DNA from: Myxococcota bacterium
GTDB lineage: Bacteria; Myxococcota_A; Polyangia; Nannocystales; Nannocystaceae
Direction of reading: 5' to 3'
Assembly (NCBI GenBank): GCA_039028615.1
Contig: JBCCHT010000001.1
Coordinates: 320,001 to 384,000 of the forward strand
DNA length: 64,000 nt
Positions within the stretch are counted from its first letter, which is position 1. Each line of letters starts with the position of its first letter. This document shows positions 18,001-21,000 of this stretch, in pieces. The position numbers were made by a program.

Positions 18001-21000
18001 CGCGACGGAGACGAGGTCGCGGGGGAACAGCTCTTCGAACGCTACTTCGACGCCGTCGGTCGGTTCTTCTTCAACAAGGCCAGCGGGGATCCCGAAGACC
18101 TGGTGCAGGAGACCTTCGCCTCGTGCGTACGGGGTCGCGACAACGTCCGCGACTTTCGCTCGTACCTGTTCGGCGTCGCCTACAACGTGCTGCGCGCGTA
18201 TATCCGTCGCAAGCAACGGCCCGATTCCTCGCCCAACGCGGACGAGGTCTCGGCGTGTGACCTGGGGCCCGGCCCTTCGACGGTCATGCATCGCCGCGAG
18301 GAGCAGCGGCTGCTGCTCGAAGGGCTCCGGCGCATTCCCTTCAACTATCAGATCGTGCTCGAGCTCCACTACTGGGAAGAGATGACCACCGCTCAGATCG
18401 GCGAGGCGTTGGGCGTGCCCACCGGGACGATCCGCAGCCGGCTGAAGATCGGTCGTCAGAAGCTCGAGCAAGCGCTAACGCGCGTATCCGCGCCCGCGGA
18501 CGTGCTCGACAGCACCATGAGCGACCTCGACGGCTGGGCCCGGAAGCTGCGGCGCTCGGTCGAGGACTCTTCGCCCTCGACCTGAGCGAGCCCCTCACTC
18601 CGCCAGCAGGTCCTCGATCAACGCGTCCATCTCGGTGACGTTGAACGAGTTCTTCACCGCCCGCACCACGAGGTTCTTGTCGATCACGATGTCGCGGGGA
18701 TACGGGTAGCCCACGCCCTCGGGGAAGGCGAAGTCGTACAGCGTGCCTTCGTCGGCGACCACGGGGAAAGTGATGCCCGTCTGCTCGAGGAACGCGGCCA
18801 CCTGCTCCGGCGGATCGCCGGGGTGGATGCCGAACACGATCACGTCCTCGTCCTGATACTTCTGCCAGATGGAGGTCTCGATGTCTGGTAACTCCAGACC
18901 GCAGATGGGTCAGAAGAGGGCGAAGTAGGCAAGGACGACCACCTTGCCCCGCAGCCCTTGCAGCTGGGGAGAACCAGTGGGGTCGAGGAACGCGAATTCT
19001 TCGGTCAGCGTGTCGCCGACGTCGATGCCGCTGGTGTCACGGGCGACCAGCGGAAGGTTGGTCGGGTTCTGGCTCGCATCGGGATCGTTGTTGTGCAGCC
19101 GCAGCGTACTCGTGCCGCCATCGGGTGGAGGCGGCTCGTAGACGATCTCGAGGGCCCGAGCCGACCGCGGCGGCACCCTCAGCCAGGACTTGTCGGTGGA
19201 AAAGGGCGGCTCCAGCTCGATGTCGAGCACGTCGAGATCGAGATAACCCCGGTTGCGCACCGCGAGCACGCGATCGGAGGGCTCGTCTTCGGAGAAGCCG
19301 AGCAGCTCCTCGTCGACCCACAGGTCGGGCGCGACGTAGCCCGGCCGGTACTCGACGACGTGCATCTTGGTCCACTCCCCCACGTAGAGGAAGCCGTCTT
19401 GGATCTCGACCGCCACGTCCTGCTCGAAGGAGGGAGAGGAGCGCACGCGCTCGGTGGCCAGTAGCTGCAGGGTCTCGCGATCGTGCACCGCCACGTGGCT
19501 CCACGCCGCGATCGCGATGATCTCGTCGTCCATCGACACGGCCTGCGCCGTCCCGCGGGTCTCGATGTGGCCCACGCCCAGCGGCGCGCTCGGGATGGAC
19601 ACGTCGACCACCTCGACGCCGTCGCCCCCGAGGGCCAGCAGCGCGCGGTCACCATCGACGAAGACGTCGCGGACCATGCCCGGGATCTCGAAGTGCCCCA
19701 CGTGCTCGGGCTGCAGCGGATCGGCCAGCGACAGCACTCGGATGCCGCCCACGCCATCGGCCACGTACAGGTGGTCGCCGTGCACCGCCGGCTTGGTGGC
19801 GTTGTCGAAACCGTCGATGACCTTCTCGAGCGCAGGGATGCCCTGGGCATCGGTCGTGTACACGCGCAGGCCACCGCCGTGCGCAGCCACGTACAGGTTG
19901 CCTTCGTGGTAGACCACGCCCTCGAACAGCACCGTCGGGTCCTGCTCCATCTCCATGAGCGAGGAGCCCTCTTCGTTGACCCGGAAGGCGGCGAGGAACG
20001 GGGTATCGACCCAGGTGTCGCCGTGGTGGGTGAAGTAGATGACCTGCGCGTCCCCCTGATCGGGCCCGAACGCGGCGTGCTGGCACCGCGCCGTGGCCGC
20101 TGCGATCACGAAGGGATCGTCATGGTTGGTGATGTTCTCGATGGTGGCGCCGAAGCCTCCGCAGGTGACCGCCAGGTCGCCCTGCACCTCGATGTCGACG
20201 ATCTCGGCGCCGGAGCCTCGCGCCCGGTGCACCAACGAGTCCCCCTCGGCGCAGCAGGTGCCCTCGAGGATCGGCGTCGCGTCGGCGCAGCCCCGGCCCT
20301 GCCCGCAGGGCAGGCACTCGAGCCCGGGACAGGCGTCTCCGCCCGGTGGCCCGGGGGGCGGAGGGCCCTGGCCATCGCCATTGCCCCCCGCGTCCTCGGC
20401 CCCTCCGGTGTCGCCCGCCGAGCCCCCCTCGGTCGCGGCACCGGTGCCCGAGCCCCCGTCCCCCGTTTGCGCCCCTGGGCCCCCACCCAGATCGCTCACG
20501 GAGCGGCAACCGGACGCCCCAAGGACCACGCTCGCCAACACCAGGGGCCACGCGGCAGCCCCGACGAAGCTCGGGGACGACCCCGAGCCCAGCCCATGTT
20601 CGTCGCCAGTCATGCGGACACTCCGACGCTCCGTGCAGGGCGTCGTGTCGCAAACGATCGACGAGCCGCAATGTTACCGAGGTCGGAAAATGCGAAATTC
20701 GCGCCAGACCTGATTTCGGGCGCACGGCGGGCAGCAAAGCCCGCCCGTCCCCGGCCCATCGGTCGTAACATCGGTTTGTGCGGTCCGTTTGGCGAACACC
20801 TCGCCCGGCTTCTTCGGCCGCGCCAAGGCTCACGACCATGCGGCAGCAAATCCTCGGACTGGTGATGGCGAGCGCAGCATTCGGCTGTGCCCCGCCGCCC
20901 GTGATTCCCGGCAGCGACGACAGCGGGGCGCAGGCCTCTGACGACGGTGAGGGCGACTCCACCGAAGCCTCCGCCATGGACGGCGCACAGCTCGATCCCG

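Follow-up and report, generated by a model that had tools for sequence, protein, structure and literature searches.

One gene or two?

The locus raises the question of whether an in-frame TGA separates two genes, a long lipoprotein gene and a small redoxin gene, or instead encodes selenocysteine (Sec) in a single protein, and, in the latter case, what kind of enzyme that protein might be. Analysis of the window (the whole 64,000-nucleotide stretch of DNA under study) and of its homologues in other genomes led us to the second reading: on the comparative sequence evidence, the locus is very probably a single gene whose product is an exported lipoprotein selenoenzyme, with UGA specifying Sec in the active site of a redoxin domain.

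When the TGA is read through, a single frame of 672 codons with one internal TGA is obtained (Table 1). The Sec codon is codon 568, a TGA at positions 18910–18912 of the minus strand, and its context is YFALFUPICGLELPD. Translation table 11 yields two ORFs in this same frame, one of 567 aa (18910–20613, minus strand) and one of 82 aa. The first-pass annotation had merged the gene calls g00285 and g00284, described the product as a lipoprotein, placed UGA-568 in a UxxC motif of a C-terminal redoxin domain and regarded this domain as fused to an LVIVD beta-propeller. Our results agree on each of these points: (i) the 672-aa frame is open apart from the single TGA, (ii) translation and Pfam concur on the position of the codon in the domain, (iii) Pfam yields matches to AhpC-TSA, Redoxin and LVIVD, and (iv) a lipobox was found that is kept across homologues.

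Table 1. Features of the selenoprotein locus and its neighbours (window positions)
Feature	Positions	Strand	Basis or remark
Whole selenoprotein gene	18595–20613	-	672 codons plus terminal TGA at 18595–18597
Predicted lipoprotein signal peptide, lipobox ...LGASG-C36	20506–20613	-	Read from sequence
Gly/Pro-rich low-complexity linker, residues ~37–92	20338–20505	-	Translation
Cys-rich N-terminal module	20239–20337	-	C103, C109, C120 and C121 nearly invariant in type-A orthologues
LVIVD-repeat beta-propeller, residues ~127–422	19348–20235	-	Pfam LVIVD, AF2, Foldseek
Ig-like (HYDIN / PapD-like) beta-sandwich, residues ~431–523	19045–19323	-	Profile search, PF22544, AF2
TlpA/ResA-like thioredoxin-fold redoxin, residues ~538–672	18598–19002	-	Pfam, PDB
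U-P-I-C redox motif	18901–18912	-	60 + 29 distinct sites carry TGA at the homologous codon
SECIS hairpin GUCUGG-AGUUA-CCAGAC	18883–18899	-	Stem 18894–18899 / 18883–18888, loop 18889–18893
Spurious "second gene", 82-aa table-11 ORF	18595–18843	-	Publicly called small redoxin or peroxiredoxin
Divergent neighbour, redoxin lipoprotein of 276 aa with WCGPC	20778–21608	+	Pfam AhpC-TSA, Redoxin
Second neighbour redoxin, 166 aa	21612–22112	+	Pfam
DUF6029 protein, 670 aa, downstream of both redoxins	22135–24147	+	Pfam 28.5 bits, cut-off 27

Domain architecture

An AlphaFold2 (AF2) model of the propeller, Ig-like and redoxin parts reached a pLDDT of 93.1 and a pTM of 0.91. At the N-terminus, at least 90% of the 42 homologues aligned have Cys in the column of C36, and a hydrophobic stretch ending in [AGST][AG]C is seen across the rows; the lipoprotein signal and the conserved lipobox point to an extracytoplasmic location. 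The Gly/Pro-rich linker shows no conservation among homologues in the alignment consensus, and the Cys-rich module is accompanied in some homologues by extra PF00526 Cys-rich repeats. Membership of the propeller in the LVIVD group is indicated by a Pfam LVIVD match (PF08309) at residues 311–350 above the gathering score (29.8 bits, cut-off 20.2) together with the propeller fold recovered by AF2, with all-beta blades at pLDDT >90, and by Foldseek. Its invariant residues are C151, R176-C177-Q178, G198-D199, H245, W371 and E413-W414. The propellers that Foldseek retrieved from the PDB, with 7 or 8 blades, were all either designed or of a generic WD40-like kind, and none gave a functional lead. 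In a profile search of PDB sequences, the propeller had no solved relative other than a haloalkylphosphorus hydrolase, matched weakly over 35 residues (E 3e-4). An Ig-like domain, not mentioned in the first-pass annotation, separates the propeller from the redoxin; among PDB sequences its profile matches Hydin, FAP65 and 2qsv_A, PF22544 is found on homologues, and the strands are present in the AF2 model.

The redoxin domain and its enzyme class

Pfam AhpC-TSA matched residues 550–652 with 52.6 bits against a cut-off of 26, and Redoxin scored 41.1 bits. Profile matches to solved structures included 2ls5_A (E 3.2e-16) and ResA (4nmu_A, E 7.6e-9), and in the alignment U stands opposite the first Cys of WCxxC; Pfam, the PDB alignment and the AF2 secondary structure all place the domain in the thioredoxin fold with C(U)xxC followed by E-x-P. 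As had been noted before, NCBIfam gave only sub-threshold matches of the ResA/TlpA type, in the order ResA (44.2 bits, cut-off 170), StoA (23.7, cut-off 210) and TlpA (16.8, cut-off 230). Since these scores fall far under the curated cut-offs, orthology to ResA, StoA or TlpA is not supported, and no characterised reductase can be called an orthologue of the protein. We infer that it works like the TlpA/ResA-like thiol-disulfide oxidoreductases, outside the named subfamilies.

It is quite improbable that the Sec domain is a peroxidase of the peroxiredoxin kind, clearing peroxides at the cell surface, and not a disulfide reductase. The best Pfam match is indeed AhpC/TSA, peroxiredoxins of the Bcp and Rv2238c type are among the weaker PDB matches, "peroxiredoxin" is the name given to a fragment in one source, and PF00578 is, according to the available part of PMC13188914, the family of the known "Prx-like" UxxC selenoproteins. 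The same part of that paper gives the peroxiredoxin motif as P-x-x-x-T/S-x-x-C(U), however, and the context here, L-A-Y-F-A-L-F-U, has Ala and no Thr/Ser three residues before U, hence no peroxidatic T/S-x-x-C of the AhpC/Bcp type. In addition, F-U-P-I-C-x-x-E-x-P reproduces the W-C-x-x-C-x-x-E-x-P pattern of the ResA-like 2ls5_A, and the strongest solved relatives (2ls5_A and ResA) as well as the NCBIfam ranking favour the thiol-disulfide oxidoreductase reading.

Conservation of the TGA codon

The claim that public gene calls stop at the UGA was substantiated: among the homologues returned by the search, which form dozens of clusters at 50% identity, 80 of 86 end there. A further 41 short database proteins (68–104 aa) match the downstream part, some of them named "redoxin domain-containing protein" or "peroxiredoxin", and none of the 41 carries the U/CxxC motif. 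The starts of these small ORFs lie past the motif, so neither the active site nor the first strand is included. Such records amount to a systematic annotation error, in which the protein is cut at the Sec codon and the C-terminal domain is called apart without its active site.

The public calls and the recorded small proteins are what favours the reading of the TGA as a true stop, which would end an LVIVD lipoprotein of 567 aa and leave a small redoxin to be translated on its own. We nevertheless consider this very improbable, given small ORFs that would be devoid of an active site, relatives with Cys at the position that are continuous proteins, a covarying hairpin located precisely at the SECIS place, the Sec machinery's presence, and the conservation of the site itself. 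In the family and genome-contig loci, 60 distinct sites have TGA at the homologous codon, and so do all 29 of the further loci drawn from a phylum-wide sample. All 89 distinct sites come from Myxococcota-type genomes, covering many families of the phylum, and frame, spacing and U-x-x-C are kept over the whole set. The frame after the TGA remains open for 99–113 codons in 59 of the 60 cases, and the downstream domain is 28–76% identical by tblastn.

Two paralogues of the same genome, at C50:47745-49601 (U509) and C14:15207-16934 (U476), have the same architecture and UGA, as previously described. The count of more than 35 long matches in 73 genomes, each with one in-frame TGA, stood only in part: 37 family matches were flagged with one TGA, two of which (G056 and G058) have Cys at the site and the TGA as terminal stop, and their removal leaves 35 distinct TGA sites. 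Up to seven family matches per genome occur in marine Myxococcota, and the fusion family is common in the phylum.

Three full-length relatives (L031, L034 and P0083) carry Cys in place of U, so that the in-frame UGA stands opposite Cys in these proteins as well as in the solved ResA-like chains. P0083, with YFASFCPVC, corresponds to the single full-length hit with Cys that had been reported earlier from the protein database. Loss of the Sec machinery as the origin of the Cys forms was rejected, SelA being present in both Cys-form genomes (and in 5/5 genomes tested).

A decaying pseudogene with a nonsense mutation has a negligible probability: an in-frame stop in a long ORF does resemble such a mutation in a single sequence, but comparison between genomes already refutes it, the same codon being TGA at the 89 sites, including the three paralogues here and many families of the phylum, with the downstream sequence conserved as protein (35–76% identity). 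General recoding of UGA to Trp, Gly or Cys in the lineage has likewise almost no chance of being correct; nothing specific speaks for it beyond the fact that read-through by itself does not identify the inserted residue, and against it stand the dedicated tRNA-Sec, SelA, SelB and SelD, the location at a redox-active Cys position, and the use of TGA as the terminal stop of this gene and in 25 of the 60 homologues (TAG in 25, TAA in 10), which means that these genes use TGA as a normal stop as well.

SECIS hairpin and Sec machinery

The hairpin begins 10 nt past the TGA and comprises 6 bp at -8.9 kcal/mol; it is the element that had been placed 13 nt downstream, a distance counted from the first base of the TGA. 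Across the 60 distinct homologous sites, 357 of 360 cells of the 6-bp stem are paired and compensatory changes occur at four of the six pairs. The stem covariation score was 0.317, compared with 0.111 in shuffles (0/500 as high) and at most 0.080 in slid controls. Subfamily stems differ by compensatory changes that alter the amino acids too (e.g. IQEFPG, NREFPG and AAELPR), and the hairpin is missing from the two full-length Cys-form relatives whose DNA was analysed. The concern voiced in the first-pass annotation, that conservation of the hairpin is a by-product of conserved LEFPD codons, is largely removed because the stem covaries and the Cys forms are without it. Individual sites do show stem mismatches, with two in L024 and one each in L087, L097 and L098.

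The bacterial SECIS (bSECIS) model, as given in the available part of PMC13188914, asks for an apical loop of 3–9 nt with G in the first two loop positions, an upper stem of 4–16 bp, a UGA-to-loop distance of 16–37 nt and an MFE of at most -7.5 kcal/mol. All four of these published constraints hold here, with the loop AGUUA (5 nt, G in second place, then U), the 6-bp stem, the 16-nt spacing, which is the lower limit of the model, and the MFE above; the energy threshold is reached at 55 of 60 sites. Folded alone, the 66 nt after the TGA gave no significant result (z -1.86; 11/200 shuffles fold equally well), and the MFE structure is longer and unlike the hairpin. It is the comparison across sequences that argues for the hairpin.

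The Sec machinery that had been listed for this genome was recovered, comprising a tRNA-Sec at C10 c[12185,12281] and SelA and SelB, and SelD was found in addition, each of the three proteins with a score above its curated cut-off. Among sequencing runs, none of RNA was listed as carrying the locus; the single run that carries it is of DNA and may be the one from which the assembly was made.

Gene neighbourhood

A homologue of the 276-aa redoxin adjoins the fusion gene in 10 other loci, homologues of the 166-aa redoxin do so in L023, L036 and L075, and a DUF6029 homologue adjoins fusion paralogues in L042, L053 and L075. Among 81 flanking ORFs from 25 loci, no conserved partner other than a recurrent ~200-aa redoxin was seen, and no cytochrome-maturation or Sco/Cox genes lie beside the fusion gene in this locus or among the flanking ORFs. 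The 276-aa WCGPC redoxin is a possible redox partner; as an electron donor it is proposed tentatively, because the neighbourhood is mostly not conserved.

Proposed mechanism

We propose that, when the ribosome meets UGA-568, the hairpin 10 nt downstream, which sits within the codons for G-L-E-L-P-D, would recruit SelB with Sec-tRNA(Sec), and that 104 further codons would be translated after Sec insertion, up to the second, ordinary UGA stop. Lipoprotein processing at Cys36 would then place the protein in the cell envelope, its mature form consisting in order of a flexible Gly-rich tether, the Cys-rich module, the LVIVD propeller, the Ig-like spacer and the UxxC domain of TlpA/ResA type. Sec568 would act as the attacking nucleophile and reduce or isomerise an oxidised sulfur or selenium species such as a disulfide, the substrate presumably being held by the propeller. 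The resulting selenenylsulfide would be resolved by Cys571, and the oxidised U-C pair could be re-reduced by an envelope reductant, for which the neighbouring CxxC redoxin lipoproteins are candidates.

A bolder version, which we regard as fairly unlikely, is that the propeller serves as the substrate or catalytic module of a self-contained surface selenoenzyme and is no passive anchor. C151 and C177 (of R-C-Q), G-D, H245, W371 and E-W would form a redox or metal site, served by the rigidly docked Sec-redoxin (pTM 0.91) through intramolecular thiol-selenol exchange; under selenium limitation, termination at the UGA would free a redoxin-less 567-aa propeller, and the activity of the protein would therefore be selenium-dependent. 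If true, this would constitute a new enzyme architecture.

Relation to known systems

The redox domain belongs to a known selenoprotein type, as the first-pass annotation had also stated. The available parts of PMC13188914 and PMC1088965 describe Prx-like thiol:disulfide oxidoreductases (PF00578, UxxC) and "thiol-disulfide isomerase-like" selenoproteins (cd02966 TlpA-like, UxxC), with which the present protein shares the PF00578 redoxin fold, Sec as the first residue of UxxC, Cys-form homologues and a bacterial SECIS just downstream. Those families are described there through the redox domain alone, whereas the lipoprotein here is 672 aa long, with the redox domain as its C-terminal quarter and a propeller and an Ig-like domain before it. 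The word "propeller" does not occur in the available part of PMC13188914, nor "fused" or "multidomain" in that of PMC1088965.

With the ResA/TlpA/CcmG type (4nmu, 1st9, 1jfu and the uncharacterised 2ls5) the domain has in common the fold, the CxxC position, E-x-P after the motif and an extracytoplasmic location (predicted here), but it differs in having Sec for the first Cys, in falling below the NCBIfam cut-offs and in its fusion to large, putatively substrate-side domains. Like LVIVD surface proteins (PF08309), the protein has an above-cut-off Pfam match and the propeller fold in its model, and the nearest protein Atlas clusters are LVIVD proteins (scores ≤0.87, to be taken as leads only). 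Most of the LVIVD proteins found are giant multi-repeat proteins with no redox domain (83 of the best 150 representatives), in contrast to the single propeller here with its own invariant C151, RCQ, GD, H245, W371 and EW. The hairpin resembles the fdhF-type SECIS in that it is short, lies just 3' of the UGA within coding sequence and carries G-U or G-G in its apical loop, yet it is very small (6 bp) and has the minimal 16-nt spacing.

The LVIVD fusion architecture is absent from the literature and selenoprotein catalogues searched; Table S2 of BSepDB (families) lay beyond that search and may bear on novelty. Neither "LVIVD" nor "propeller" appears in the available part of the BSepDB supplement, which is the genome list, and NCBIfam release 20.0 has no model for the fusion, just the sub-threshold ResA-type matches. 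The family adds a multidomain architecture, predicted to be envelope-anchored, to the selenoproteome of bacteria; the phylum concerned is mostly aerobic and has large genomes. A Sec-redoxin tethered to a propeller that may bind substrate also offers a tractable system in which to ask why selenium is used over sulfur in extracytoplasmic thiol chemistry.

The hairpin as a search key

The GGAGUUNCC hairpin core is nearly invariant family-wide, with the loop GGUC in one subfamily. Four instances of its exact pattern are present in the 12.27-Mb genome, where 10 shuffles gave 0.3 on average; all four fall at the UxxC of redoxin frames. This compact and strongly conserved element provides a simple search key for further selenoprotein genes in Myxococcota. 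The pattern search in this genome also turned up a further UxxC redoxin.

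Gene structure and Sec codon

Two genes called under table 11 were joined by read-through of a TGA into a single frame of 672 residues, in which that codon, number 568, is the only internal TGA (context VVVLAYFALF-U-PIC-GLELPD). The first-pass annotation had proposed one split gene with an in-frame TGA, and this was borne out by the 672-residue read-through and by Pfam matches to AhpC-TSA (52.6 bits; cut-off 26) and Redoxin at residues 550–660, which span the TGA. Its claim of a selenocysteine (Sec, U) machinery also held: aragorn found one tRNA-Sec among the 87 tRNAs of the genome, and SelA (402.7 bits; cut-off 267.9), SelB (308.5 bits including a C-terminal piece; cut-off 242) and SelD (385.4 bits; cut-off 125) exceeded their cut-offs. 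From the machinery, the conserved site and the SECIS element, TGA 568 is predicted to encode Sec. The fusion is predicted to represent a real multidomain selenoprotein family that is widespread and subject to systematic mis-annotation.

Features of the fusion gene, its divergent neighbours and its paralogues (window coordinates unless a contig or residues are named)
Feature	Location	Strand	Remarks
Upstream ORF	18910–20613	-	567 aa; table 11 calling
Downstream ORF	18595–18843	-	82 aa; table 11; frame identical to 567-aa ORF
Predicted Sec codon, TGA	18910–18912	-	
Predicted SECIS hairpin	18883–18899	-	GUCUGG-AGUUA-CCAGAC; 10 nt past TGA
Terminal TGA	18595–18597	-	end of 672-codon frame
Lipoprotein signal	residues 1–36		from sequence; conserved Cys36
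CxxC redoxin lipoprotein	20778–21608		divergent from fusion gene
Second redoxin	21612–22112		divergent from fusion gene
DUF6029 protein	22135–24147		divergent from fusion gene
Paralogue	contig C50:47745–49601		one TGA, U509; architecture as in fusion
Paralogue	contig C14:15207–16934		one TGA, U476; architecture as in fusion

The gene is also adjoined by a Ser/Thr kinase of 993 aa that carries TPR repeats (14325–17306, - strand) and by a convergent ECF sigma factor (17911–18585, + strand), 9 nt from the gene's 3′ end; neither is kept beside fusion orthologues. The sole Rfam match at gathering score in the window was an ordinary tRNA gene (10949–11021, + strand).

Public gene calls

A search of a 5.8-billion-protein collection returned 86 homologues, and the claim that public calls stop at the UGA applies to 80 of them, which end exactly one residue before U (75 match a strict pattern; five more have YFGVW, YFGIW or GYFALF). 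The one full-length database protein with Cys that had been reported was found as P0083 (608 aa), which reads YFASF-C-PVC and has Redoxin, LVIVD and PF22544. Among the best 150 representatives of 50% clusters, 61 stop at the site, three more have variant endings, and 83 are giant LVIVD repeat proteins. The downstream pieces occur as 41 separate database proteins of 68–104 aa, some under the name 'redoxin domain-containing protein' or 'peroxiredoxin'; the active-site motif is present in none of the 41.

Conservation of the Sec site

Across all fetched loci, 69 distinct 66-nt stretches covered the homologous codon, which was TGA in 60 and TGC/TGT in nine; seven of these Cys codons lie in unrelated redoxins that stand alone, the other two in full-length Cys-form fusions (loci L031 and L034). 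The frame stays open for 99–113 codons past the TGA at 59 of the 60 sites, the exception being L085 with 45. Since the terminal stops of the 60 Sec-form sites include TGA (25, beside 25 TAG and 10 TAA), TGA is an ordinary stop in these very genes. Both paralogues proposed in the first-pass annotation have the architecture and TGA position it described. Its statement that long matches carry one in-frame TGA stood for 35 of 37 rows; in the other two, L031 and L034, the TGA is the terminal stop. The two TGAs of L102 are the Sec codon and the stop. At L118 (G209:C58) and G337:C148, additional TAG/TAA codons lie upstream of the Sec site and could reflect frameshift or decay.

The SECIS hairpin

Folded as a single sequence, the hairpin region was not significant (z -1.86; 11 of 200 shuffles fold equally well), and the first-pass annotation had cautioned that the hairpin overlaps conserved LEFPD codons, so that its conservation is not independent of the protein. 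The comparison between sequences is decisive in favor of the predicted hairpin. RNAalifold on the 60 distinct sequences predicted exactly the 6-bp helix, with 357 of 360 cells paired and two-sided changes in four of the six stem pairs, including 26–42 (GC 44, UA 8, AU 4, CG 2), 27–41 (UA 52, CG 6, AU 1) and 29–39 (UA 46, UG 5, AU 4, GC 3, CG 1). For a 7-pair version of the stem, the covariation score was 0.317; shuffles gave 0.111, with 0 of 500 reaching the observed value, and a control with the 3′ arm slid gave no more than 0.080. The residues encoded at the stem differ by subfamily (GLELPD, SLEFPD, VLEFPE, ALEFPE, IQEFPG, NREFPG, NQEFPD, VQEFPV, AAELPR); because the stems vary along with them, the helix is not a by-product of conserved codons, and the caution is largely answered. 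In the subfamily YFATWUPxCPSEVSD (L107, L110–L112, L114, L115, L117), the hairpin is GUCCGA-GGUC-UCGGAC, shifted by one base; its loop is the 4-nt GGUC instead of AGUUN, and there is a compensatory variant GUCGGA/UCCGAC. The hairpin is absent from L031 and L034, the two Cys forms with DNA read.

The bacterial SECIS consensus, as set out in PMC13188914, has a loop of 3–9 nt with G within its initial two positions followed by G or U, a stem of 4–16 bp, a UGA-to-loop distance of 16–37 nt and an MFE of -7.5 or below. With a 5-nt loop (A-G-U), a 6-bp stem, a distance of 16 nt and an MFE of -8.9 kcal/mol, the fusion hairpin falls within the four constraints of that model; the MFE is -7.5 or lower at 55 of the 60 sites. 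The genome (12.27 Mb) contains four exact copies of the pattern TGA-N10-6 bp-AGTTN-6 bp vs a mean of 0.3 in 10 shuffles, namely in the three fusion paralogues and in a redoxin frame, GHW-U-SYC, at C42:70173.

Domain architecture and predicted mechanism

The architecture described previously was supported by the Pfam redoxin matches, by an LVIVD repeat at 311–350 (29.8 bits; cut-off 20.2) and by the lipoprotein signal, whose Cys36 is kept in no fewer than 90% of 42 homologues and is preceded by hydrophobic stretches ending [AGST][AG]C. A Gly/Pro-rich linker and then a Cys-rich module follow. No NCBIfam (20.0) model claims the fusion, the ResA, StoA and TlpA matches all being sub-threshold. An AlphaFold2 model of residues 90–672 from a 55-row alignment (pLDDT 93.1, pTM 0.91) comprised an all-beta propeller (38–333, model numbering), a beta-sandwich (342–434) and an alpha/beta thioredoxin fold (449–582); a pTM this high suggests that the domains are fixed relative to one another. 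In Foldseek, the propeller resembled only generic propellers with 7 and 8 blades. The sandwich is HYDIN/PapD-like by a profile search of PDB sequences (Hydin 7sqc, E 3.4e-11; 2qsv_A, 6e-7), and the nearest solved chains to the redoxin domain were 2ls5_A (E 3.2e-16) and ResA 4nmu_A (7.6e-9). In the alignment to solved chains, U takes the place of the first WCxxC Cys, and the E-x-P past the motif is conserved. Propeller residues invariant in type A and type B are C151, R176-C177-Q178, G198-D199, H245, W371 and E413-W414.

The redox domain is, as judged from sequence, of the extracytoplasmic thiol-disulfide reductase type. A peroxidatic type was rejected, there being no T/S three residues ahead of U. 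In ResA/TlpA, attack on the substrate disulfide comes from the first motif residue, and resolution of the mixed intermediate from the second. By analogy, Sec would attack the substrate disulfide to give a selenenylsulfide, and the second motif residue, Cys, would resolve the mixed intermediate; the most plausible role of the propeller and Ig domains is to hold or present the substrate. At other loci, the adjacent homologues were the CxxC redoxin lipoprotein (10) and DUF6029 (3). The neighborhood is otherwise variable (81 flanking ORFs, 25 loci scanned), so an envelope redox relay, with the neighboring redoxins as putative electron donor, is only a suggestion.

Evolution and distribution

Fusion matches at E ≤ 1e-10 were present in 20 of 73 genomes of the family, which are the entire order as represented in the genome collection. 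The fusion family is expanded in some genomes (seven matches in G002, four each in G048 and G008), and its members are often arranged in tandem: L025, L028, L043 and L048 are tandem pairs, with two Sec-form genes head to tail per contig. Phylum-wide, it was found in at least 37 of 301 sampled genomes across many families, a lower bound owing to the use of a stricter filter; TGA occupied the Sec site in 29 of 29 new loci.

In a quick maximum-likelihood tree (85 rows, 79 different) that left out rows reaching fewer than 330 residues ahead of the site or 95 past it, together with the seven stand-alone redoxins, three Cys forms fell in two places within Sec-form clades. This placement, in a tree without an established root, is consistent with Sec being the older state, replaced by Cys at least twice. 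SelA was found in 5 of 5 genomes tested, both Cys-form genomes among them, and loss of the machinery is therefore not the cause.

The collections searched yielded no fusion outside Myxococcota-type genomes. Records labelled Enterobacteriaceae (L075, L082, L083) or Rickettsiales (L070, L078, L080) were encountered, and loci among them are identical to those of genomes placed in the window's phylum (L075 = L094, L083 = L099, L078 = L093), so the taxon labels of these MAG records look wrong.

Relation to known selenoproteins

Among predicted bacterial selenoproteins, UxxC redoxins are the commonest kind, so the redox domain is of a known type, shared with catalogued UxxC families when compared by description only. 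A literature search found no paper with LVIVD and selenocysteine together, and nothing relevant among the matches listed for selenoprotein, beta-propeller, bacterial and UxxC. The term 'propeller' is absent from PMC13188914, PMC13326102 and PMC12013277, as are 'LVIVD' and 'propeller' from a part of the BSepDB supplement that lacks the family table. It is the fusion architecture for which no printed description was found.

Outside the window, the redoxin-like frame at C42:70173 (+ strand; AILVFYRGHW-U-SYC), with 101 open codons before the TGA, 107 after it and loop AGUUG in its TGA-N10-hairpin pattern, is a further candidate selenoprotein. A stand-alone lipoprotein redoxin (L018; C18:about 139105–139635, - strand) reads FYRSADW-U-PFC with one in-frame TGA, followed by GCAGCU-GGUCA-AGCUGC as judged by eye.
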